Shown one piece after another: positions 22,474 to 47,953 of a stretch of 47,953 bases of DNA. The stretch lies in the IMG/VR virus record IMGVR_UViG_2554235123_000011; one strand, 5' to 3'. The stretch is from a virus (lineage: Duplodnaviria > Heunggongvirae > Uroviricota > Caudoviricetes). The translations under genes and the position numbers were made by a program. Numbering within the stretch: the first letter of the stretch is position 1; every line of letters begins with the position of its first letter. Under the pieces are notes generated by a model. The model did not search any database. It was not told the origin of the DNA and was given only the letters and a program-made list of their open reading frames with translations.

Positions 22474-24385
22474 TCACTCCTCCGGACAGCTTCGCTGCCA
22501 GTTCTTTAAGGGTTGGCCGGGTCGTCTCTTCTTCCCGGGATTTTGCCAGTACAGCCAGATCAAGCTGCCAGCGTTGCACGGACACACGTAATGCCGCGTA
22601 GGCATACACCAGGCAGTCCAGCGCTTCGTTACGCCGCTTTTTGTTATCCCACAGCAGACGCATCTTTCCTTTTTCCCACTTCTCCACAAGCTCTTCCGCG
22701 ACCAGTTGCTGCGCCTCTGTCTGCGAAAAAATCTCCGGATCATCAGGAAAACGGATGGCATACGACGTGGCTTCATCCGCAGGCGTGGGCTCGGCTTTCA
22801 TACGGGCATAGAGAATTTCTTTTGCGGTGTCCGTCCCCACTTCACACAGATAAACGCCCCGCTGATTGCGGGTTTTCGGCATGGTGATCACCGGCTTGCC
22901 ATAGACAGACGCGCCTTTTACCGGCAGCACACGGAAAACACCGTGTTTTTTTGACCTCTGGTAGACGATTTCACCATCGATCCCCCCGGTGTCCCAGCAG
23001 ACACGGGAAATGGTCATTTCGGTGCCATCCGCATGGCGGTATTTTTTGTTGATCGCCGCATCCACACGTAACAGCGTCTCTTCCTCATCAGGACGCCCCA
23101 TAATGATGATTTTATCCACCAGAAAAGCTTCCTCTCCCGGTGCCCATCCCCAGACATACATCTCAAAACGGTTTCGCTGCGAGTCAATGCCCGCCGTCAG
23201 ATAAACCACCCGGGCAGGCACCGCCGCCGTGTAACGCACAACCTTATCCATCAGCACCTGGTGATCGAGTTTTTCGCCCACGGCCTCTTCCCAGGTCTCG
23301 CCCAGCGTGGTGTTCACAAAGGTTTTCAGGCCGTTGGGATCTTTCAGTGCATCCAGCCAGTCATAGACTATCTGTACCCAGGTGGTGAACGGACTGTACG
23401 CTGTCCAGATATGGAACGTGATGGAGCGCGGCGGCGGAATTTCATTATCCGCGGCGCTGAAAAACGTCAGACCGTCACGGGTCCACATCCCCGTGTTTTC
23501 ACAGATCCACCGCCCGTTGCTCTGGTCAAGCTCAGACTGATGGATCACGCAGCCATGATGTTCACAGAGGTAGAAAACGCTTTCGGGGCTGTCCTTCTCC
23601 CATTTAAGGCCAAAAGGCGTGGATTCATCGCCAAATTTCAGATACTGCTCCTCCCCACAGTGTGGGCAGGGCACATAAAAACGCATGAAATGCGCCGACT
23701 CGTTGGCCGCTTTTTCGATCTGGCAGGTGCCTTTGATTTTAGGCGTCGAGCCGCGAATGGATTTGGGCCATACAGAGCCCTCAATACGTTTATCCCCAAG
23801 CAGGGTTGGCGAACCCTCTTTTTCGACATCCGGTTCGAACGAGGAAAGTTCGTCATAGCAGACCACGTCCACGGATTTTTCACGGTAGTTTTTGGCGGCA
23901 GCGCCGCCCAGGCACCAGAAACCCACACCCGATGAAAAGCGTTTCAGCGTGAGGGTATTGTCACGATGTTTACGCCCCAGCCATGGAAAAAGGTCTTTCA
24001 GACATGGCACATCCCGAATCGTCGCCTCCACGTGAGACTTCATAAAATCTTCAGCGGCAGAATCCGTGGGCTGAAAAAGCAGACTGTTTCGGGATTTATG
24101 CTCAATAAAATACCCGACCACCCCCAGCAACATCTTTGTATAGCCAACACGGGCAGATTTAATCAGATTAACAGTCCGGATCTGATCATTCCCCATGCTG
24201 TTCATGATGGCGATCTGGAACGGCAGCGTTTTCCATTCTCCCTCACCATATGAAGATTCTTTAGGCAGATAATAATTTTGATCAGCCCATTCAACTGGCG
24301 TCACCGGCAATGCCCTTATCAGGGGCTGTAATGCTGTTGTGACAGCACTCATCATATTATTCAGTTGTTGCTCTGATATATTCAT
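22457..24385 (-). CDS. A: Terminase large subunit A (~642 aa from MNISEQQ...)
   Basis: lambda gpA-like throughout as remembered (e.g. CPHCGEEQYLKFGD, WTAYSPFTTWVQIV). Confidence 0.95.
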   Translation of the reverse strand: MNISEQQLNNMMSAVTTALQPLIRALPVTPVEWADQNYYLPKESSYGEGEWKTLPFQIAIMNSMGNDQIRTVNLIKSARVGYTKMLLGVVGYFIEHKSRNSLLFQPTDSAAEDFMKSHVEATIRDVPCLKDLFPWLGRKHRDNTLTLKRFSSGVGFWCLGGAAAKNYREKSVDVVCYDELSSFEPDVEKEGSPTLLGDKRIEGSVWPKSIRGSTPKIKGTCQIEKAANESAHFMRFYVPCPHCGEEQYLKFGDESTPFGLKWEKDSPESVFYLCEHHGCVIHQSELDQSNGRWICENTGMWTRDGLTFFSAADNEIPPPRSITFHIWTAYSPFTTWVQIVYDWLDALKDPNGLKTFVNTTLGETWEEAVGEKLDHQVLMDKVVRYTAAVPARVVYLTAGIDSQRNRFEMYVWGWAPGEEAFLVDKIIIMGRPDEEETLLRVDAAINKKYRHADGTEMTISRVCWDTGGIDGEIVYQRSKKHGVFRVLPVKGASVYGKPVITMPKTRNQRGVYLCEVGTDTAKEILYARMKAEPTPADEATSYAIRFPDDPEIFSQTEAQQLVAEELVEKWEKGKMRLLWDNKKRRNEALDCLVYAYAALRVSVQRWQLDLAVLAKSREEETTRPTLKELAAKLSGGVNGYSR

Positions 24386-24866
24386 CGAGTAAATCCGGTA
24401 ATTTATCCCCCGCCCGCGCACACTGATTTGCCCCCTTCGCAATAAGGGTTTTCAGATGGTCAAGATGGCGCGGTGTTAAATCAGGAAACTGTCGCTGCAT
24501 GGATAAAGGGATGGAATCAAGCGTACTGGATAACGCCATTGCCAGCTTGCTGAGGGCAAAAATACAGAACCCGGTATCAATAAGTTTTCCTTTTGACACC
24601 TCATTTTTTAACTGCTGTGTAACAGCCTGTTCTGCTGTCAGTTCCCATCTGGCAATAAGCAATTTCTCCTCATAGTCGTCTTCGCTATCGCCATCAGGCA
24701 CATCGTTTTTACTTCTTCTCAGATACGATATGTAAAAATCGCGCCAGGCATCCAGATCCAGTTGCCCTCGCTTATTCGATATCGGGGCACCCGGCAATTT
24801 CTGCAATCTGCGAAGCTGGCGATCGGTCAGACTTAAATGCCTGGCAACTTCAGTCTGCGTAGCCAC
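24357..24866 (-). CDS. nu1: Terminase small subunit Nu1 (169 aa, N-terminal HTH)
   Basis: Position between cos and A; HTH at N-terminus; C-terminus ...LPDLLDEYIRATTE resembles lambda Nu1. Confidence 0.8.
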   Translation of the reverse strand: MATQTEVARHLSLTDRQLRRLQKLPGAPISNKRGQLDLDAWRDFYISYLRRSKNDVPDGDSEDDYEEKLLIARWELTAEQAVTQQLKNEVSKGKLIDTGFCIFALSKLAMALSSTLDSIPLSMQRQFPDLTPRHLDHLKTLIAKGANQCARAGDKLPDLLDEYIRATTE

Positions 24867-25020
24867 TCCTCACCTCGCAAAAACTCTCACTTCACAATCA
24901 CAACAAAACCGGTCATGTCCGGCTTACATGTCTATTTTTTGTGCATGTCCGGTTCACAGAAGACCTCTTTTTTTATTTTTCATATAGTTAACTTGAAGAG
25001 AAACCGGACATGGTTCCCGG

Positions 25021-25065
25021 AAAATTTTCATAAATAGCGAAAACCCGCGAGGTCGCCGCCCCGTA
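25021..25065 (-). other. cos site: cosN with the 12-nt lambda cohesive-end sequence GGGCGGCGACCT (25050..25061) and adjacent cosB-side sequence
   Basis: Minus strand reads ATCCAACAGGTTACG-GGGCGGCGACCT-CGCGGGTTTTCGCTATTTATGAAAATTTTCCGG, matching the lambda cos junction as remembered. Confidence 0.85.
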
Positions 25066-25209
25066 ACCTGTTGGATCGACGGAAAGGACCCGAAAACGAG
25101 AATAATTATCACTTACAGCAAGAATCGAATCTGATCTATTATGGTGCTTGCTATTATGTGCCGGCACAAGTGCGTCGTTTACCGTCATTTCACACAGAGG
25201 CATCATCAA

Positions 25210-25461
25210 ATGAAAATCAGAAATATTCTCGCTATCTCCCTTGCAACATCATCCTTCAGTTGCCTGGCATTTAAATCCTCGCCCAATGTGCTACCAGGAC
25301 CAACGAATCAACTAACTGCGGTAGAAAGTAAAATTATCGGACATTTTTATGCCCCACACAGTGCATTACCCGGAACAACCATCACAGGGACATGTGACGC
25401 CTCCCCCGTCCCGGGATGCACCTGTCCGTTTTGTACTATGCTGCGTAGCCAAAACCGATAA
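25210..25461 (+). CDS. Hypothetical small Cys-rich protein with signal-peptide-like N-terminus (83 aa)
   Basis: ATG at 25210 with upstream GAGG; MKIRNILAISLATSSFSCLA...; no recognised domain. Confidence 0.3.
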   Translation: MKIRNILAISLATSSFSCLAFKSSPNVLPGPTNQLTAVESKIIGHFYAPHSALPGTTITGTCDASPVPGCTCPFCTMLRSQNR

Positions 25462-25522
25462 CATCCGCATTTACCTGGTATTACATGATGAGTTCACGCA
25501 GCGACTGATAGAGGAAGGAAAG

Positions 25523-25702
25523 ATGGTTAGTAAAAGCAAGGCGCATTGCCGCCGCATGCTGCAGGCATTGCAACAGACGAGAGCAGGTATTTTTGACCAG
25601 TTGGAAAACTGCCAGCATACTTTGCCCGAGTATATCGCCATCTCATCGGAAACCAGTGCAACTCTTATTCATCGGGTTCCACCAGAGAAAAAGAAGAAAT
25701 GA
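25523..25702 (+). CDS. Hypothetical protein (59 aa)
   Basis: Strong SD (GGAGGAAGGA) 5-8 nt upstream of ATG 25523. Confidence 0.35.
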   Translation: MVSKSKAHCRRMLQALQQTRAGIFDQLENCQHTLPEYIAISSETSATLIHRVPPEKKKK

Positions 25703-25824
25703 ACAGTGAGGCGTTGTGTGGCATACAACGCCTTCTTCCATCATTCCTCGTCAGCCATGACAAAAATATAACCGCTGGCTCTTTCATTTTTCTCCTGCGT
25801 CCAGCCCCTCTCTACCTGGAAGCA

Positions 25825-26151
25825 TCAAGGACGTGACGGCGTAAAGATAAATTGTCTCTTCACTCCCTGACAGGGGCGATTCTTTTCAAATCGCCATTTC
25901 GCCATGGCCTTCACCACTTCATCACGAAACAAATTATGAGGCTCTGAGCGGAGAAAAACGATCCGTGTCACAGTCCCATCAGCACCAATATCGAACTTAA
26001 CCTCAACCAGCCCCTTGATATAATTTGCTGCAGCATATTCCGGATATCGTGGATACACCGTCACTAATTGCCGGGGCTCATCAGCTTTTTGCTGCGAGCA
26101 TCCCACTGCCAGGACAGATAACAGAAAAAGTAGTAAAAGGCGTCTTTTCAT
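25825..26151 (-). CDS. Lipoprotein with TonB C-terminal-like domain (108 aa)
   Basis: Lipobox LAVGC after MKRRLLLLFLLSV; YPRYPEYAAANYIKGLVEVKFDIGADGTV...FRDEVVKAMAKWRF aligns by eye to the TonB C-terminal domain; SD AGGAA upstream. Confidence 0.7.
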   Translation of the reverse strand: MKRRLLLLFLLSVLAVGCSQQKADEPRQLVTVYPRYPEYAAANYIKGLVEVKFDIGADGTVTRIVFLRSEPHNLFRDEVVKAMAKWRFEKNRPCQGVKRQFIFTPSRP

Positions 26152-26461
26152 TTTTATTCCTACGGGTCTTATTCTGACAATATATCCTGTGTTCCAGACT
26201 GCCACATCACCACATCCTGTGCCATTATCTGACTCACATTACATACATCGCATCGGGATACAGTAGTAGCACTTTCTGTAATACAGCTTCCTGTTTCTTC
26301 CACCATCGCACCGGGATAAACCCGCGAATCATTAACGCGGTAAAAACCCGGTGTGCATCGTTTTTAATTATCCCCGCACACTCGCGCAGAGGAGTCTCCC
26401 TGTCGGGCTGCGGTCTCTGTTAATGAGGGAATATAGCGACGATACGGCGCATCAACAAAAC

Positions 26462-26920
26462 TTATTTCAGGCACTGAGTGCGGATATAGTCCTGTGCCCC
26501 TTCCAGTTGCTTGTGCATCGTCATCAGCCGCTCTCTGAGGGTGAAATAATCCCGTGTAACGGTGTCTGCCAGTTGGGGGCCGGTTGCATTATCCACGCCG
26601 GAGGTGGTGGGGGCTTCACGCACGGAGCCTGGACAGGTGGCGTTGATCCGCAGGCGCTTACGACCAGCGGCAACGTCAGCGCGAAGAGTTTCATTTTCAG
26701 CTCTCGCATCGGCTAATTCCCTCGAGTATTTTGCATCGAGCGCAGCAACATCGCGCTGGCGCACCTGCATATCAGTAATGGTTGCGTTCGCCAGCTTCAG
26801 TTCACTGGCTTTGTTATCGCGCTGCGCTTTGTAGGTAATCGCGTTATCACGGTAATGGTCTGTTGCCATCCACAGCGCACCACAGGCCACCAGCAGAATA
26901 ACGATAAACGCGGAAAGCAT
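26462..26920 (-). CDS. Rz: Spanin inner-membrane subunit Rz (~152 aa)
   Basis: ...[14 protein letters not shown]...[29 protein letters not shown]... lambda Rz-like. Confidence 0.9.
26524..26709 (-). CDS. Rz1: Spanin outer-membrane lipoprotein Rz1, embedded in Rz in the +1 frame
   Basis: [17 protein letters not shown]...[30 protein letters not shown], lambda Rz1-like Pro-rich lipoprotein. Confidence 0.8.
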
Positions 26921-26931
26921 TCGGTTTATGT

Positions 26932-27063
26932 TCACCCCAGCAACCCCGACGAAGACAACATCATCCAGGCCATGGAAAGAAAAAGAGCAACCAGCATTAG
27001 TGAAAATGAAATGCCGACAATTACACAGAGGATCTTCGCCAGCGTTATGAGTTTGTCTGACAT
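26932..27063 (-). CDS. Small hydrophobic peptide (43 aa, one predicted TM helix) between R and Rz
   Basis: Strong SD AGGGAGGA before ATG 27063; [43 protein letters not shown]. Confidence 0.4.
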
Positions 27064-27416: not shown

Positions 27417-27950
27417 TTATCTGTCGATACCCCAGCACGCCAGCGCGCTCTCCTGGTCACGACGGGATACCTGACCGTAACAGTTGTTTGAACGAATACG
27501 GCAGTCTCTGCCACCGTCCTTAATCCACCAGCGAATCGCTTCGCAGGCACCTTTTCGATCACCAGCATTAATTCGTCTGTAAAACGTCGACGGGAAACAC
27601 TTACCGGGACCAATGTTGTACGGACAGAATGACGCGATCCCCGCTTTCTGGGGTTCGGTCAGCGGCACTCTGATGTTTTTCTCCACCCACGCCAGCGCTT
27701 TATCACGCTCAATGGCGTTAACCTGGTCGCATTTTTCCTTCGACAACTTCATGCCCGGAACGACAGGTTTGCCATCCACCATGATGGCACCACGGCAGAT
27801 GGTCCAGATACCTGCACCATCACGGTATGCCGTGGTGTGGTTGCCTTCCTTTTCATCCAGAAACTGGTCGAGAATGTCAGGCGCAGGCGCACCAGCGGCA
27901 ATCAGCGCCAGAACGGCAGCCGACAGGCCGTATTTGATTTTGGTGTTCAT
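27417..27950 (-). CDS. R: SAR endolysin (T4-lysozyme-type, GH24) R
   Basis: Gly/Ala-rich signal-anchor-release N-terminus YGLSAAVLALIAAGAPA; catalytic E-8aa-D-5aa-T spacing (EGNHTTAYRDGAGIWT). Confidence 0.85.
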   Translation of the reverse strand: MNTKIKYGLSAAVLALIAAGAPAPDILDQFLDEKEGNHTTAYRDGAGIWTICRGAIMVDGKPVVPGMKLSKEKCDQVNAIERDKALAWVEKNIRVPLTEPQKAGIASFCPYNIGPGKCFPSTFYRRINAGDRKGACEAIRWWIKDGGRDCRIRSNNCYGQVSRRDQESALACWGIDR

Positions 27951-27986
27951 GGATATATTAAATATTCAGCCGCTGTCCCTGGCCCA

Positions 27987-28880
27987 CTAAATACGCACTT
28001 TAAGATAAGTCAGCCCCGGATGAAGCCAGTAAGCCGGCCCTTTTTTAAAGGGTGGAGTATTAAAATCACGAAGAAGAGCCTCCCGCACAATTGCATCCTT
28101 ATCAGCACCACTGGCCAGCGCTTCAATCTCAGCGGCTACCTGAAGATATCCCATGCAACGGCCAACGCGCTTCATCAGCCCCTGCTTTTTATTGTTCTTC
28201 AGGTAATCAATGGCAAATTCAATGAGCTCCTCACTGTGCTGGTGCGATGGAGGTGTTACTTTCCCATTTTCTGAGATGGTTATTTTCCCAGCATCACCGG
28301 ATACAACAAAGGATGGCCGGTTACACTCCCATTCCGGGTCACTGAAATTATCATTATGAATACTGAAACACTCTGCGAGATTTCTGCTCATCACTTTCCG
28401 ACAATAATCGTCAAACGCAGCAAACTGCTTTTCATCGCCAGAAGGCACCAATATCGACCATTTCTTATTCAGCTCAACGACGTAGCTCTCCAGTTTTTCA
28501 ATACGTGATTCAACATCATCTTTTTCTGACCGCAGTGTTGACGGCGGCATCTTCAGAGAACAAGTAATTCTTCCCGGTAGCTTTCCTTTGTAGGTTATCA
28601 ACACATCCTGCGCCTCTAAAATTACGGGGCGCTTTTCCGGCAACGGTTCGTTCCATTCACATAACCCGGCAGCAACATCCATGAAAAACTGCTTCGCCTG
28701 CTTTTTCGCCTCAGCTTCGTAAAACTCCAGCGTGGCACCTTCAGTACGGTCAAGACTAATCGCCACATCTGGCAACAACAGCGACGCTTGCCCGTCACCT
28801 TCCGACTTCACAGTAACAGTAACCTTATCCCCGTAATTATTTATCCCCTTAACAACCAGTTCATATTTTTTATTCATCAC
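27987..28880 (-). CDS. Hypothetical protein (297 aa) inserted between pinholin and endolysin
   Basis: Long ORF with start abutting the S stop; no recognised motif. Confidence 0.6.
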   Translation of the reverse strand: MMNKKYELVVKGINNYGDKVTVTVKSEGDGQASLLLPDVAISLDRTEGATLEFYEAEAKKQAKQFFMDVAAGLCEWNEPLPEKRPVILEAQDVLITYKGKLPGRITCSLKMPPSTLRSEKDDVESRIEKLESYVVELNKKWSILVPSGDEKQFAAFDDYCRKVMSRNLAECFSIHNDNFSDPEWECNRPSFVVSGDAGKITISENGKVTPPSHQHSEELIEFAIDYLKNNKKQGLMKRVGRCMGYLQVAAEIEALASGADKDAIVREALLRDFNTPPFKKGPAYWLHPGLTYLKVRI

Positions 28881-28881
28881 T

Positions 28882-29097
28882 TTACTCTCCCCGCGCCGCC
28901 TTACGCCGGTCCTCTTTGATTTTGAAATACAGGTTAGTCAGATATGTCAGCAGCCCAAACAGCAGACTCCCCAGCACGCCTATTGCCGCCCACTGAGACG
29001 GGGAAACCCTGTCCAGCAACTGCAGGAACCAGTAGCCCGTTCCCACCGCTGACGTGGTGTATGACACACCTGTTGTGATTTTTTCCATCTGGTACAT
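28882..29097 (-). CDS. S: Pinholin S (phage 21 S21-like, 71 aa) with dual-start motif
   Basis: [10 protein letters not shown]...[41 protein letters not shown]; Met1 and Met4 dual starts; same length as S21. Confidence 0.85.
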
Positions 29098-29404
29098 ACC
29101 CCGTCTCCCGTTATCCGGAAGCTGACAACAATAAAAAAGCCACCAGTTAAGTACTGATGGCTCTGATAACTCATGCAGGCGTCTCAGACGACCCACTGAC
29201 ACTACCGGTGAGTTTAACGATACCTTCCATTTGACTGGCTCACTTTTTATGATGATGCCGGTGCATTTATCTCCAGCACCAGACTTTCTATCTCAACGCC
29301 ATACGTTGCATTTTTGGTAATATCCGTCAGCGTCAGTGCATTTAGTCCCACTGCCAGACCGTCTTTTATGGCCTGGAATGCCGGGCCAGTACGATGACGT
29401 AGTA

Positions 29405-29608
29405 TCACTCCGGCTCAGTTGCACCACTGACCACCACATCACCTTCTGCTGCAATCGCCTGCATCAGGGTATAAGGGGTTATGGCCACCGGACTACCAAA
29501 CGGCTGCCAGCCCTCTTTCAGTTTATGTGTCAGCTTTTCCGCAAGATCTGACGGCGACGCCGCCCTGACAACATCATAGTGTTTAAATGCCATGGTTCTT
29601 TCCACCAT
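29405..29608 (-). CDS. Small conserved prophage protein (67 aa), possibly the N-terminal remnant of a larger gene
   Basis: ORF upstream of the holin; an overlapping downstream frame encodes a further protein-like 45-50 aa. Confidence 0.45.
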   Translation of the reverse strand: MVERTMAFKHYDVVRAASPSDLAEKLTHKLKEGWQPFGSPVAITPYTLMQAIAAEGDVVVSGATEPE

Positions 29609-29853
29609 CTGAAAAATGATTCTTTAAAATACCTGACATGTAATACAGAAAAAACACAAAACCATACCTTAAATAAAAACCTCATCATCAAGCAGATATG
29701 CATGGATAAACTACAAGACGAGATATAAACCACCCTGCATTTAAATAAACAATAAACAACATCAGAAAAATAATTCTGCTCTATGGTTTACAATCAAAAA
29801 TATCATTTATACTTTTCAGAACATCACCAGCAAGGCATAAACAAGGAAACTAA

Positions 29854-30189
29854 ATGAAGTGGATTGTGATTGATACAGTTATCCAGCCATCATGCGGAAT
29901 ATCTTTTTCAGTCATATGGAGTAAAATAAAATTAATAATCTGGTATCAATCGGATGCTTTCTTACCTCCTGAAAGTATATTTACACTGACTCACACAGGT
30001 ATCATGCTCAATAACAAAGTGCTACCTGTAACCATTTACAACGTAGTACCATTCAATAAAACATTCTGGAATTTAATCAAAAACAGCCAGGAATGCCCTA
30101 CAAATACAGATAACGTATTGAATGAATGCTTTAATAACCGTTGCACTCTGCAAATATGTCCTTATGGGCTAAAACAACAAAGTCCATAA
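29854..30189 (+). CDS. Hypothetical AT-rich ORF (111 aa) oriented against the late operon
   Basis: Low-GC ORF with AAGGA SD; promoter-like GTTTAC...TATACT upstream (about 29787..29820). Confidence 0.35.
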
Positions 30190-30544
30190 GGAGTTTACTC
30201 ACATCTGACAAAATCAATATAAACAGCCCCTCCGGAGAGGGGCTGGAGAGTGGCGCTATGTGCCATTGCATGGTGCCGGGTGCCTCCCGGTGAATTCAGT
30301 ACCAGCACCTGAATCCGCGATTATCCCATATACCTACTCGCTGATTGCCCCTCCGCACAGGGGGATTCACCATGCCAGTTTCTTTTAACAAACTCCCCGC
30401 AAACCAGACAACAGTCAACCGCCTGAATTGTGAAGTATTTAAAAATTTCTCCCGCTAACTGATACCCGGCTAACAGTCTGGCGTTTTCTTTTTCAGCAAC
30501 GGGAAAGCAACAACCACCACACCCACCAGCCGCCCATTTACCAC

Positions 30545-41064: not shown

Positions 41065-41472
41065 ATGAAAAACGAAACCTTCGGTGCTCGCCTCTTATAC
41101 AGGCGTAAAAAATTAAAACTGTCTCAGGCCGCATTAGGTAAGCTGGTCAAAGTGGCTCACGTAACAATTTCTCAATGGGAAAGAGATGAAACACAGCCAG
41201 CGGGGAAGAGATTATTCGCACTGAGCCAGGCGCTTCAGTGCTCGCCGACTTGGCTTCTTTTTGGAGATGAAGATAAGCAACCAGGCGAACCGATCCCAGA
41301 TAATCAGCCAGTTAATCTGACAGAAGATCAAAAAGAGTTGCTTCAACTGTTCGACGCACTGCCTGAGTCAGAGCAAAAGGCTCTGTTGTCAGAGATGCGT
41401 GCTCGAGTTGAGAATTTCAACAAACTTTTTGAAGAACTACTCAAAGCTCGCAAAAGAAGCGCAAATAAATAA
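41065..41472 (+). CDS. dicA: DicA-type repressor (HTH-XRE, 135 aa; no LexA-like peptidase domain)
   Basis: ...LSQAALGKLVKVAHVTISQWERDETQPAGKRLFALSQALQCSPTWLLFGDEDKQP...; same length as K-12 DicA. Confidence 0.85.
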   Translation: MKNETFGARLLYRRKKLKLSQAALGKLVKVAHVTISQWERDETQPAGKRLFALSQALQCSPTWLLFGDEDKQPGEPIPDNQPVNLTEDQKELLQLFDALPESEQKALLSEMRARVENFNKLFEELLKARKRSANK

Positions 41473-44078: not shown

Positions 44079-46535
44079 ATGAGCACTGATAAAGAAGAAA
44101 TTGCACTATATTACGAAGCCAAAAATGACAAAATCAGAAAACGTCTTGGAATTAAAGGCGGTTTTTACTGGCGCACAGCAAAAAAATTATCGGTTGCAAT
44201 ATCACGCGGTGTTGTCGCAATGGACGATGCCGGATTTGACAAAGAGGATTTTAAAAAACCTGTTCGCGTCCATTTACCCGTTGTGAATGACCTTCCTCCG
44301 GAAGGCGTGTTTGATACCGAATTCTGCAACCGATACGAAAAGGGCGGTGAAGATGGTATCACAATGGTACTTATCGCGCCCTCGCCCTCTGTTCAGGATA
44401 AACCAGCCAGCACTGACAATACCAACGTCAACGGCGAAAACATGGCTGAGATTGAGGAGAACATGCTCCTGCCGGTTTCAGGTCAGATTCTGCCTGTTCG
44501 ATGGCTGGCACAGCACGGCAGCGAAAAACCGATCACACACGTTTCGCGGGACGAACTGCGCACATTACATAACGCACAGGATGAAAAACTTCCCGCCGTT
44601 ACCGCGCTGGCCATCTCAAATAAAGCAGCGCAACTCGAACCGCTGGAAATTCGCGATCTCCACAAACTGGTTCGTGACACGGACAAAGTTTTCCCTAATC
44701 CTGGTAATTCAGACCTGGGACTGATGACTGCTTTTTTCGAAGCATACCTGGGCGCTGACTACACCGATCGCGGTCTGCTGACAAAAGAGTGGATGAAAGG
44801 AAATCGTGTTTCACGCATCACCCGCACGGCTTCCGGTGCTAATGCCGGTGGAGGGAACAAAACCGATCGCAATCCGAATTTAGTACACACCTTCGATACG
44901 CTGGATGTGGAGATTGCAGCGGCCACACTTCCGATGGATTTTAATATTTATGAAATTCCGGGCAGCGTTTATCGTCGCGCAAAAGAAGTCGTCCGGAAGA
45001 AAGAAAGTCCGTTCAAAGAATGGTCCGCAGCACTTCGCGCAATCCCGGGTATCCTGGATTATTCCCGCGCCGCTATTTTTGCACTTATCCGAAGCGCACA
45101 CCCTGAATTTTATCACTACCCGGGACGCCTTCAGGGGTATATCAACGCCTATTTGACGGAAACTGATCACGAGAACCCTACCGAGGAAACTCTCGCTGCT
45201 GCACGACATACACCGGAAAAAGATATCCTGGAAGAAGTTAACCGCGAACTGGCTGCTGAACGCGAAACAGAAGAAGAAAAAAATAATGAGGAAAAATCAC
45301 AACCGTCTGACGCAATGGCAGATGAACAGGCAACGACTGAAGCAATGGAGCCGAATACAACTGAACATCGCCAGGACACGCAATCGCTGGATACTCAGGC
45401 ACAGATAGATCCGGTTAATCAGGTAAAAGTTACCGCTGACGAAGTAAACAAAATTATGCAGGCAGCCAATATCAGCCAGCCTGACGCCGATAAGTTGCTT
45501 GCGGCCTCTCGCGGAGAATTTGTTGCAGGGATTAGCGACCCGAATGATCCGAAATGGGTCAAGGGGATGGAAACCCGCGATTCTGTGAACCAGAACCAGC
45601 AAGAAACGGAACAGAACGGCCAGAAAGCGGAACAAAACAGCCCAAATGCGTTACAAAACGAGCCAGAAACGAAACAACCTGAACCAGTAGTGCAACAGGA
45701 ACCGGAAAAGATCTGCACCGCCTGCGGTCAGACCGGCGGCGGCAACTGCCCTGATTGTGGCGCGGTGATGGGCGACGCAACATACCAGGAAACATTCAAT
45801 GAAGAGAATCAGGTTGAAGTTCAGGAAAATGATCCGGAGGAAATGGAAGGCACTGAACATCCACACAAGGAGAACCCTGGCGGCAATCAGCATCACGATA
45901 GCGATAGTGAAACTGGCGAGGCGACAGATCACTCAGTTAAGGTGAACGGTCATCATAAAGGCACATCCACCAGCGGGACGTGTGACCATCTAATGATCGA
46001 CCTTGAAACCATGGGAAAAAATCCAGATGCCCCGATTATCTCAATAGGTGCAATATTTTTCGATCCGCAAACCGGAGATATGGGACCGGAATTTAGTAAG
46101 ACTATCGATCTGGAAACTGCTGGCGGAGTCATTGATCGGGACACCATTAAATGGTGGCTTAAGCAATCACGCGAAGCGCAATCTGCCATTATGACCGATG
46201 AAATCCCGTTAGATGATGCACTGTTACAATTGCGGGAATTTATCGACGAAAACTCCGGCGAATTTTTTGTTCAGGTCTGGGGAAATGGAGCCAACTTCGA
46301 CAACACGATTTTGCGCCGTTCATACGAACGGCAGGGGATCCCCTGCCCGTGGCGTTACTACAACGATCGCGATGTACGCACAATCGTTGAGCTGGGGAAA
46401 GCCATAGACTTCGATGCCAGAACGGCTATTCCATTCGAAGGTGAGCGCCATAATGCACTTGATGACGCCCGTTACCAGGCAAAATACGTTTCAGTTATCT
46501 GGCAAAAACTGATCCCGAGTCAGGCTGATTTTTAA
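44079..46535 (+). CDS. Large prophage protein (818 aa) with C-terminal DEDDh 3'-5' exonuclease domain, central acidic low-complexity region and Cys4 zinc ribbon
   Basis: Exo motifs IDLETMG, VWGNGANFDNTIL, HNALDDARYQA; CTACG...CPDCG. Confidence 0.7.
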   Translation: MSTDKEEIALYYEAKNDKIRKRLGIKGGFYWRTAKKLSVAISRGVVAMDDAGFDKEDFKKPVRVHLPVVNDLPPEGVFDTEFCNRYEKGGEDGITMVLIAPSPSVQDKPASTDNTNVNGENMAEIEENMLLPVSGQILPVRWLAQHGSEKPITHVSRDELRTLHNAQDEKLPAVTALAISNKAAQLEPLEIRDLHKLVRDTDKVFPNPGNSDLGLMTAFFEAYLGADYTDRGLLTKEWMKGNRVSRITRTASGANAGGGNKTDRNPNLVHTFDTLDVEIAAATLPMDFNIYEIPGSVYRRAKEVVRKKESPFKEWSAALRAIPGILDYSRAAIFALIRSAHPEFYHYPGRLQGYINAYLTETDHENPTEETLAAARHTPEKDILEEVNRELAAERETEEEKNNEEKSQPSDAMADEQATTEAMEPNTTEHRQDTQSLDTQAQIDPVNQVKVTADEVNKIMQAANISQPDADKLLAASRGEFVAGISDPNDPKWVKGMETRDSVNQNQQETEQNGQKAEQNSPNALQNEPETKQPEPVVQQEPEKICTACGQTGGGNCPDCGAVMGDATYQETFNEENQVEVQENDPEEMEGTEHPHKENPGGNQHHDSDSETGEATDHSVKVNGHHKGTSTSGTCDHLMIDLETMGKNPDAPIISIGAIFFDPQTGDMGPEFSKTIDLETAGGVIDRDTIKWWLKQSREAQSAIMTDEIPLDDALLQLREFIDENSGEFFVQVWGNGANFDNTILRRSYERQGIPCPWRYYNDRDVRTIVELGKAIDFDARTAIPFEGERHNALDDARYQAKYVSVIWQKLIPSQADF

Positions 46536-46596
46536 TGTTCAACCGTCGCCAGTTGTCGTTGATATTCTGCAACTGGCGCGTTCCGGAGTGATAGCC

Positions 46597-46866
46597 ATGA
46601 GCGAACAGTACCTGATAACGCTCGACGAGTGGAAACCAAAACGGTTCAGTCTCCCAATAACAAACACTACCCTGGTGAAATACGGAAAACTAGGATACAT
46701 CGTTCCAAGACCACAAAAAATTCGTGGGCGTTGGCTGATAGATCGCCGAGCAGTATTTGTTGGGCCTGGTGAAACGGGAATTGCGCCGGAAATTCATACT
46801 GGCGATGATGATGCACTGAAGGAGATTTTAACTCATGTCACCGAGGCCACGAAAAAACAGCACTGA
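46597..46866 (+). CDS. xis: Putative excisionase-like protein (~89 aa)
   Basis: Small gene immediately upstream of and overlapping int. Confidence 0.45.
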   Translation: MSEQYLITLDEWKPKRFSLPITNTTLVKYGKLGYIVPRPQKIRGRWLIDRRAVFVGPGETGIAPEIHTGDDDALKEILTHVTEATKKQH

Positions 46867-47953
46867 CGTAGCCGGTCTTTACGAAAAGTTTGATCGCAGA
46901 ACTGGCAGAGTTTACTACCAGTATAAAAATCCTGTGACTGGAAAATTTCACGGACTCGGAACAGACAAAGGTAAGGCAGAAAAAATCGCTTCCACAGCCA
47001 ATCAGCGAATAGCTGCAGCAGAAGCTGAATATTTCATGCGCAAAATTGATGAAAGTCCGTCAGCAACAAAACGTCGGGGTATCAGATTAAAGGCATGGGT
47101 TGATCGATATCTGAAAATACAGGACACGCGACTGAAAAATGGAGATATTGCAGCTACAACTCACAAAGAAAAAACTCGAATGGCTGCATACCTGGTTTCC
47201 CGTCTGGGAAACCACCCATTGAAAGAACTGGAAGTAAGAGACTTTGCATTAATACTGGATGAGTGGCTGGATAAAGACATGGTCAGCACAGCGAGAGTAA
47301 ATCGTGGATTATGGGTTGATATTTATAAAGAAGCACAGCATGCAGGGGAAGTTCCTCCTGGATGGAATCCTCCGGAGGCTACCCGTAAACCGATCCCTAA
47401 AGTAACCAGAGCCAGGCTCACCATGGAAGACTGGCAAAAAATTTACAATGCAACGCCTGAAAAACACTTTATCCGTAACGCAATGCTTCTTGCGATTGTT
47501 ACTGGTCAGCGCCGTGATGACATTTGCCACATGCGTTTTTCAGATGTGTGGAACGAACACTTGCATATCACCCAGGGAAAAACCGGAATGCGTCTGGCGT
47601 TACCGCTTACACTACGCTGTGATGCCATTGGGATAACGTTAAAAGAAGTTATTGATGGGTGCCGAGACAGAATATTAAGTCCATATCTAATCCATAGTCG
47701 GCACCAGAAACAACCGAAGCCGATGAGTAAAGACAACCTGAGCGACTACTTTGCCAAAGCACGGGATCTGGCTGGGATAATTCCACCAGCAGGAAAAACT
47801 CCGCCAACATTTCATGAACAACGCTCTCTATCAGAACGGCTGTACCGTGCACAGGGTATCGATACAAAAACATTACTAGGACATAAAGTCCAGGCAACCA
47901 CCGATCGCTATAACGATACTCGAGGTCAGGAATGGGTTAAGTTGGTTATTTGA
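46835..47953 (+). CDS. int: Tyrosine integrase (lambda Int family, 372 aa)
   Basis: C-terminal catalytic region ...TFHEQRSLSERLY...LLGHKVQATTDRYNDTRGQEWVKL resembles lambda Int (R...HxxR...Y). Confidence 0.9.
   Translation: MSPRPRKNSTDVAGLYEKFDRRTGRVYYQYKNPVTGKFHGLGTDKGKAEKIASTANQRIAAAEAEYFMRKIDESPSATKRRGIRLKAWVDRYLKIQDTRLKNGDIAATTHKEKTRMAAYLVSRLGNHPLKELEVRDFALILDEWLDKDMVSTARVNRGLWVDIYKEAQHAGEVPPGWNPPEATRKPIPKVTRARLTMEDWQKIYNATPEKHFIRNAMLLAIVTGQRRDDICHMRFSDVWNEHLHITQGKTGMRLALPLTLRCDAIGITLKEVIDGCRDRILSPYLIHSRHQKQPKPMSKDNLSDYFAKARDLAGIIPPAGKTPPTFHEQRSLSERLYRAQGIDTKTLLGHKVQATTDRYNDTRGQEWVKLVI

Follow-up and report, generated by a model that had tools for sequence, protein, structure and literature searches.

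A gene beside the packaging site of a complete lambdoid Escherichia coli prophage encodes a protein of 108 amino acids, a free-standing TonB C-terminal domain (CTD) with a predicted lipid anchor and without the membrane anchor or the spacer of TonB, a description that is fully supported by its sequence, by profile comparison and by its structural model. The prophage, in reverse orientation, makes up the window, that is, the whole stretch of 47,953 bases that was analysed (IMG/VR record IMGVR_UViG_2554235123_000011), and the gene and its product are here called TonB-C. The gene lies in a cargo ('moron') position, between the lysis genes and the cohesive-end site (cos), and, to judge from its substitution pattern, it is under purifying selection and is a maintained functional protein. 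Of the roles considered, that of a decoy of TonB is the best supported, though by no means assured.

Sequence and predicted structure of TonB-C

25825..26151, minus strand: free-standing TonB C-terminal-domain lipoprotein gene, 108 amino acids (RefSeq WP_000830178.1, 'TonB family protein').
26098..26151, minus strand: signal peptide and lipobox, MKRRLLLLFLLSVLAVG followed by C, with Cys18 as the predicted lipidated residue (pattern match).
25843..26076, minus strand: the TonB_C domain itself, which spans residues 26-103 and corresponds in the alignment to positions 153-230 of E. coli TonB, with the YP motif, beta1, beta2, alpha2 and beta3.

The open reading frame (ORF) is present as an earlier, sequence-only reading of this DNA had given it, and its product starts with MKRRLLLLFLLSVLAVGC (longer N-terminal stretch, MKRRLLLLFLLSVLAVGCSQQ). 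Lipoproteins were recognised by a positively charged n-region, a hydrophobic h-region and a lipobox of the form [LVI][ASTVI][GAS]C, all of which are found here, and the PROSITE-type lipoprotein pattern (PS51257-type) is matched by MKRR-LLLLFLLSVLAVG-C, with the lipobox LAVGC of that reading and a Ser at position +2. No variant down to 67% identity lacks the lipobox Cys, which is also kept in many of the relatives at 30-46% identity, and the +2 residue across variants is Ser, Ala or Thr. By the +2 rule of Lol sorting, a residue other than Asp at this position (Ser in TonB-C) implies sorting to the outer membrane, and TonB-C is thus presumably an outer-membrane lipoprotein.

The mature part had been read as resembling the TonB CTD, and profile, sequence and fold comparisons bear this out. 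TonB_C (PF03544) was the sole Pfam match at E ≤ 1 (E = 7e-13, 49.2 bits against a cutoff of 24.6), TIGR01352 scored 47.4 bits against a cutoff of 27.1, and the best match among all Protein Data Bank (PDB) sequences was a gap-free alignment to residues 150-230 of E. coli TonB (E ~1e-14), in which 33 of the 81 residues (41%) are identical. The YP motif (Y36-P37, corresponding to Y163-P164 of TonB) is kept, as are F180, F202, W213 and F230 of TonB. There is no transmembrane anchor and no proline-rich region, as had also been noted from the letters: homology begins at TonB residue 150, the CTD homology follows Cys18 after only about eight residues (SQQKADEP), and the protein ends five residues past beta3, at the position of TonB 235.

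Structure prediction, which the sequence-only reading had named as a check, returned the TonB CTD fold. The AlphaFold2 (AF2) model obtained with a 33-sequence alignment has a predicted local distance difference test (pLDDT) score of 87, with block means of at least 96 over residues 31-100; an earlier run on six near-identical sequences gave a pLDDT of 61, too weak for use. The predicted fold is of the alpha/beta type of the TonB CTD, with a short helix, a beta1-beta2 hairpin, a helix and beta3. In Foldseek the model was placed on 1u07_A, 2gsk_B (TonB with BtuB) and 2grx_C (TonB with FhuA) at template modelling scores (TMt) of 0.90-0.92 and root-mean-square deviations (rmsd) of 1.0-1.2 Å, the two receptor-bound chains, 2gsk_B and 2grx_C, reaching a TMt of 0.92. 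The PDB fold list holds TonB and TolA domains only, with TolA domain III trailing far behind TonB, and no significant match to the model was found in the BFVD viral fold library.

Conservation, annotation and distribution

Between TonB-C of the window and its homologue in phage JLK-2012, the nonsynonymous and synonymous divergences are dN 0.18 and dS 1.50, giving an omega (dN/dS) of 0.12. A 72%-identical variant is found in Stx-type phages (among them JLK-2012, Lys8385Vzw and Stx1a phages), and the whole domain core is invariant, together with the lipobox Cys, among the variants down to 67% identity.

The gene itself has already been annotated and is not new: TonB-C is 100% identical to CPT_21_73 of phage 21, annotated 'TonB C-terminal domain protein', and its annotation is older than this work, as seen both in 'CP-933N' strings (early O157 prophage annotation) and in the phage 21 record of 2022. 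The announcement of the phage 21 genome is silent on it. Its architecture and likely role are uncharacterised in the sources searched. In PHROGs the protein is matched by phrog_1267 ('Rz-like spanin', lysis category) at E 5e-43, and otherwise only by phrog_34172. The label of phrog_1267 seems to have been transferred from the Rz genes next to it, and automated annotation of phages could be misled by it.

The 1.6-kb region is covered to at least 80% in 1222 of the 5426 complete E. coli genomes (about 22%), and 1177 records, those of Nissle 1917 and LF82 among them, have the 763-bp spacer from cos to the gene at 99% identity or more. A scan of viral contigs with a narrower alignment returned almost only identical copies and no added diversity.

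Position in the prophage and relation to bor

25050..25061, minus strand: cosN cohesive-end sequence, an exact match to the reverse complement of GGGCGGCGACCT; the phage chromosome and the cargo region end here.
26462..26935, minus strand: gene for the i-spanin Rz, which closes the lysis cassette and holds the embedded Rz1 at 26524-26709 (Pfam Phage_lysis, E 2e-47; ORFs; annotation).
26452..26483, no strand: junction at which about 525 bp, including bor, are missing relative to phage 21; cassette homology starts at 26451 and Rz homology ends at 26484.
26344..26451, minus strand: conserved non-coding block upstream of the TonB-C gene (blastn; lambda 46868-46974 at 80%).

On the minus strand the order of genes is Q, holin, endolysin, Rz/Rz1, the TonB-C region, cos, Nu1 (24357-24866) and terminase A, and the region of interest is identical to RefSeq NZ_CP023820.1, where the prophage is annotated from the integrase to the tail fibres. 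Since cosN occupies 25050-25061, position 25062 is where the phage chromosome physically ends on the right, and the phage 21 record terminates at the base that aligns to 25062. With Rz/Rz1 upstream on the same strand, the TonB-C gene lies on the sense strand of the late transcript. The cargo region is lower in G+C (0.47) than Rz and the endolysin gene (0.55), as is other cargo.

The sequence-only reading had described the bor gene of this locus as replaced by the TonB-C gene and two small ORFs. The absence of bor is clear: no ORF tested within 25062-26461 matches PF06291 (Lambda_Bor), the identical RefSeq prophage has no Bor coding sequence, and the bor segment of phage 21 is missing. The replacement did not stand. 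The last 1.39 kb of phage 21 (OL657228, 41542-42931) are 98.7% identical to window positions 25062-26451, and that phage has both genes, bor (41068-41361) between Rz and the cassette, and an identical TonB-C gene. As the two are carried side by side in phage 21, bor is simply absent here, and the comparison indicates that bor and the TonB-C cassette are separate neighbouring modules. The likeness of 26152-26461 to the lambda region between Rz and bor had likewise to be given up, as only 26344-26451 matches lambda and the matching segment, lambda 46868-46974, lies beyond bor (46459-46752), on the cos side. Lambda, phage 21, JLK-2012 and this prophage all share this block of about 110 nucleotides (nt) at no less than 80%, and in phage 21 and JLK-2012 it reaches about 190 nt; its counterparts lie at L002 3701-3810 and L004 about 2173-2290, and it persists with or without bor. 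An Rfam scan of 24850-26600 gave nothing but a chance microRNA match at E 0.97, and the folding of 26344-26451 is not exceptional (z -1.46).

Relatives of TonB-C and their neighbourhoods

An exhaustive profile-free search returned 2795 proteins at E ≤ 1e-3, mostly multi-domain proteins or canonical TonBs, together with a distinct set of proteins of 107-133 amino acids that align with TonB-C end to end, most with a lipobox and some with a plain signal peptide. They are full-length relatives, 30-49% identical, and are widespread in Enterobacterales. The phage-borne ones are found after the lysis genes, just before the packaging genes where these are annotated, and on the late strand, as in JLK-2012, in Klebsiella phage ST13-OXA48phi12.4 and in a Rahnella prophage (Rz, small ORF, TonB_C, terminase).

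Other relatives are associated with colicins. In Serratia, a gene for a secreted TonB_C protein lies directly upstream of a colicin E1-type immunity gene and is convergent with a gene for a pore-forming colicin, and this three-gene cassette occurs in two backbones, a chromosomal island and a plasmid-like contig. The Serratia colicin begins MLFNTNTKFKYHSPDDGDSMTV, and its residues 18-22, DSMTV, resemble a TonB-box pentapeptide; in colicin M the corresponding element is ETLTV, at positions 2-6 (PMC11658791). In Pantoea, a TonB_C lipoprotein gene lies 1.7 kb from a colicin pore-domain gene. The Serratia and Pantoea loci are L010 6001-8510, L012 6001-8447 and L114 2133-5252.

Phage lysis and terminase markers were compared by tblastn with 16 enterobacterial loci that hold relatives, and only a colicin domain was found, in one of them; the Pfam matches of the neighbours of those relatives correspond to housekeeping genes. 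In a further locus (L016 6001-8034) a TonB_C lipoprotein relative is found within a bcs cellulose cluster, directly upstream of a gene for a 498-residue protein with a weak match to Tle1-like lipases of the type VI secretion system, which hints at another conflict or immunity context for the TonB_C family.

Proposed role and alternative explanations

Transporters and group-B colicins have a TonB box to which the TonB CTD binds. On this background, and from the analyses described above, we put forward, as the best-supported reading but with less than even confidence, that TonB-C may be a dominant-negative TonB decoy that blocks TonB-dependent phage and colicin entry. As a small outer-membrane lipoprotein with a tether of about eight residues, it would be held at the inner face of the outer membrane, where its domain, uncoupled from ExbB-ExbD, would compete with TonB at the sites where TonB boxes emerge. 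TonB boxes would be occupied unproductively, or the domain would pair with TonB's own CTD, and the effect would be dominant-negative either way. TonB-dependent uptake would be reduced as a result: TonB-dependent phages of the T1/phi80 type would be excluded and the host would tolerate colicins and microcins that depend on TonB, but would take up siderophores and B12 somewhat less well. The strand beta3, which in TonB pairs with the TonB box, is present in the model. In E. coli, the import of iron through TonB is reported to be inhibited when the periplasmic domain of TonB is over-produced (Howard et al. 2001, as cited in PMC9841981), the irreversible adsorption of T1 requires TonB and energy, and the uptake of colicin M requires TonB to contact both the TonB box of colicin M itself and that of FhuA (PMC11658791). 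The decoy model predicts linkage of the kind seen in Serratia, to immunity genes whose colicins bear a TonB-box-like sequence near the N-terminus, and because of this linkage and of the precedent of periplasmic TonB inhibition, we regard the decoy idea, which the sequence-only reading had offered as speculation, as more than that. The occurrence of TonB_C lipoprotein genes in the same post-lysis slot of unrelated phages was also counted in its favour.

Several observations weigh against the decoy model. Three TonB residues implicated in contacts with the TonB box and with receptors, R158, Q160 and R166, correspond to T, Y and Y in TonB-C, and over the domain alone the protein is 45-49% identical to the short proteins, somewhat more than the 41-44% that it reaches with the CTDs of enterobacterial TonB. 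Chromosomal relatives are found among housekeeping genes in Raoultella, Klebsiella, Serratia grimesii, Pantoea and Erwinia, settings in which a constitutive TonB inhibitor would seem costly, so that the family need not be an inhibitor. Exclusion would need expression in the lysogen, and the gene is co-directional with the late operon; a scan for sigma-70-like promoters on the gene's strand, over 310 bp upstream, recognised none, and a GATAAT upstream of the gene is conserved with JLK-2012 but, by eye, has no credible -35 element or extended -10. In addition, no match at E ≤ 0.1 was obtained in PADLOC-DB for the three ORFs of the region, and our search of the literature on phage and prophage TonB-like proteins, on decoys and on the RefSeq accession found no functional study. 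Finally, the C-terminus of J, the prophage's own receptor-binding protein, which was looked at for a sign of a TonB-dependent receptor, is a lambda-J-type domain (45% identical to lambda, 90% to VT1-Sakai), phages that carry TonB-C differ in J type, and the gene is thus not tied to one receptor-binding type.

The same dominant-negative outcome could be reached if the free domain paired with the CTD of host TonB and held TonB at the outer membrane. The TonB CTD crystallises as dimers, some of them intertwined, TonB-C keeps the aromatic core from which the TonB sheet is built, and the changes at R158, Q160 and R166 would be less of a problem; we nevertheless think this unlikely, as the model fits the monomeric receptor-bound chains 2gsk_B and 2grx_C best, while 1ihr and 1qxx, which are in the fold list, superpose poorly on the monomer-like model (rmsd 18.6 Å for the intertwined dimer). 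The TonB CTD also binds peptidoglycan, and TonB-C could be envelope or virulence cargo comparable to Bor and Lom, its TonB_C fold binding peptidoglycan or another envelope partner and altering envelope robustness, serum resistance or interaction with the host, with TonB-dependent import untouched. Such a role would suit the classical cargo region next to the bor slot, the neighbouring secreted protein of 83 residues, which has virulence-type neighbours in Salmonella salamae, the housekeeping and bcs-cluster contexts of chromosomal relatives, which suggest a benign envelope function, and the presence of TonB_C domains in non-transport proteins (NCBIfam matches to AgmX/PglI tails). It leaves the operon with colicin immunity genes unexplained, and we judge it improbable.

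The PHROG label and its E-value of 5e-43 would make TonB-C a late-expressed lysis accessory at the outer membrane, as would its place immediately downstream of Rz/Rz1, on the same strand and with no promoter detected, and the conservation of this post-lysis-gene slot in four unrelated phages. A complete Rz and embedded Rz1 pair is already present in the window, however, lambda lyses without a TonB-C protein, a globular TonB_C domain is unlike the o-spanins, relatives exist outside phages and the label was most likely taken over from adjacent genes, which together make a part in lysis very improbable. Hardly any weight can be given to the idea that the gene is a decaying, functionless fragment of a captured tonB, although some phage records are labelled 'Partial tonB-like membrane protein' or 'TonB fragment' and the databases hold truncated and frameshifted copies: a dN/dS of 0.12 at a dS of 1.5 effectively refutes it, a lipoprotein signal peptide has been added and conserved, and full-length relatives occur across Enterobacterales. 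Given that omega and the invariant lipobox Cys and core, we consider labels such as 'partial tonB-like' and 'TonB fragment' misleading.

If the decoy model is extended to the relatives, secreted or outer-membrane-tethered TonB-C domains could constitute a natural class of 'entry-level immunity' that jams the shared TonB box, keeps out TonB-dependent phages, colicins and microcins, and is used both by temperate phages and by TonB-dependent colicin operons, a generalisation that we regard as doubtful. Its users would be phage 21, prophages of the ST131/Nissle/LF82 type, Stx, Klebsiella and Rahnella phages, and the colicin operons of Serratia and Pantoea.

Small ORFs and other features of the prophage

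25709..25733, no strand: candidate bidirectional terminator hairpin between the convergent TonB-C gene and 59-residue ORF, with weak U-tracts.
25210..25461, plus strand: Cys-rich secreted protein of 83 residues, probably a lipoprotein (homologues, dN/dS, lipobox pattern; not called in RefSeq).
25523..25702, plus strand: ORF of 59 residues without a signal peptide (RefSeq WP_000253883.1; phrog_4843).

The two plus-strand ORFs between cos and the TonB-C gene, which the sequence-only reading had listed as small ORFs with ribosome-binding sites, are both present, with sites of the AGGA/GAGG type. The longer one, read at that time as signal-peptide-like and Cys-rich, belongs to a conserved Cys-rich family and has, moreover, an invariant Cys18 in a lipobox-like SFSC. 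Its full-length homologues in Salmonella, Klebsiella and Citrobacter are 54-78% identical, with dN/dS values of 0.10-0.16, and share the C-terminal consensus PVPGCxCPFCTMLR, of which P-x-P-x-C-x-C-x-F-C-x-M-L-R is the invariant core. On this comparative evidence it is a real conserved gene and an independent accessory gene, whose product is probably a lipoprotein. The family travels separately from TonB-C: in Salmonella salamae the homologue lies between a PPC-domain protein and a Bor homologue, near an omptin, a SPATE autotransporter and a NEL E3-ligase effector, and in Klebsiella it is found on a plasmid near Fur-like and CobW-like genes (homologue loci, L021 5001-5252 and L018 5001-5252).

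The 59-residue ORF has only identical copies among phage records, and the phage 21 annotators called opposite-strand ORFs where it lies; we treat it as a gene-caller family only, with candidate coding status. The YlcI/YnfO gene, which has the same convergent position in JLK-2012, was considered as its kin and proved unrelated. An ORF of 45 residues at 26169-26306 (phage 21 CPT_21_72) was rejected as a gene, being broken by indels in JLK-2012.

The hairpin at 25709-25733 has a folding energy of -16.4 kcal/mol (z -3.3 on the plus strand and -3.7 on the minus strand) and a G+C-rich core stem of 9 bp, the fold extending to 12 pairs; it was not called by the terminator scan. An antisense sigma-70-like match lies within the TonB-C gene, at 25997-26024 on the plus strand (TTAACC-16-TATAAT with an upstream TG, 10/12), and may be a chance occurrence, as the total count of the scan was not above the expectation from shuffled sequence.

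In the late-gene region at ~27900-30200 (RefSeq features; L003 17569-19412), the genes of the YdfR family and of DUF1737 are decayed, both being marked partial, and the prophage may therefore not be fully lysis-competent. The same region holds, on the opposite strand, the gene for the anti-adapter IraM. A further cargo gene, for a class I SAM-dependent methyltransferase (~227-895, RefSeq CRT46_RS06265), lies on the opposite strand just past the tail-fibre assembly gene at the prophage end.

Implications

Should TonB-C act as a decoy, about one fifth of sequenced E. coli, including Nissle 1917, LF82 and many clinical isolates, would carry a prophage gene that tunes TonB-dependent import as a whole. 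It would then affect the susceptibility of the carrier strains to TonB-dependent therapeutic phages, to colicins and microcins and to siderophore-antibiotic conjugates, as well as their iron acquisition and siderophore uptake. It would also represent a receptor-independent principle of superinfection exclusion, in which the shared energy coupling is blocked and not one receptor, and would explain the unannotated third gene in some colicin-immunity operons. If the decoy model is wrong, TonB-C is an already-annotated accessory lipoprotein without an assigned role.

Comparison with known systems

TonB-C shares its fold, the YP motif and the aromatic core with the CTD of E. coli TonB (residues ~150-239; 1U07, 1XX3, 2GSK chain B, 2GRX chain C), but in place of the N-terminal transmembrane anchor and the proline-rich spacer it has a lipoprotein signal peptide, and hence it would be uncoupled from ExbB-ExbD. 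Its scores against the NCBIfam TonB equivalogs, 45-69 bits, are far below the cutoffs of 265-448. These sequence criteria place it within the TonB_C family and outside the TonB energy transducers.

The engineered periplasmic TonB fragments of Howard, Herrmann, Stratilo and Braun (2001, J Bacteriol 183:5885), as cited in PMC9841981, are likewise anchorless C-terminal parts of TonB placed in the periplasm, and their mechanism is the one proposed here for TonB-C. They are artificial, soluble, over-produced and derived from TonB itself, whereas TonB-C is natural, diverged, predicted to be lipid-anchored and phage-borne. The uncharacterised 'TonB family proteins' of Enterobacterales (~107-133 amino acids) have the same architecture and are its closest relatives by domain score, at 45-49% identity; they differ in that many are chromosomal and in housekeeping settings, some are in colicin-immunity operons and some have a plain signal peptide.

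Among other proteins encoded in this part of phage genomes, the o-spanins are small outer-membrane lipoprotein partners of the i-spanin and are not globular, whereas TonB-C is predicted to be globular. Bor/Iss of lambda is also an outer-membrane lipoprotein cargo of the region between Rz and cos, and adjoins the TonB-C cassette in phage 21, but it belongs to an unrelated family (no PF06291 match for TonB-C) and its gene is on the opposite strand.

In its proposed role in superinfection exclusion, TonB-C would be comparable to Cor and Llp. Cor, of phi80, N15 and HK022, is a phage lipoprotein that disables FhuA. Llp of T5 is a small phage outer-membrane lipoprotein that disables FhuA from the periplasmic side (10.64898/2026.03.26.714494; PMC9586334). 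No sequence or fold kinship of TonB-C to either was found, its matches being TonB_C only in Pfam, phrog_1267 and phrog_34172 only in PHROGs, and TonB and TolA only among PDB folds. Each of Llp and Cor acts against a single receptor; the TonB box, at which a TonB decoy would act, is common to many transporters.

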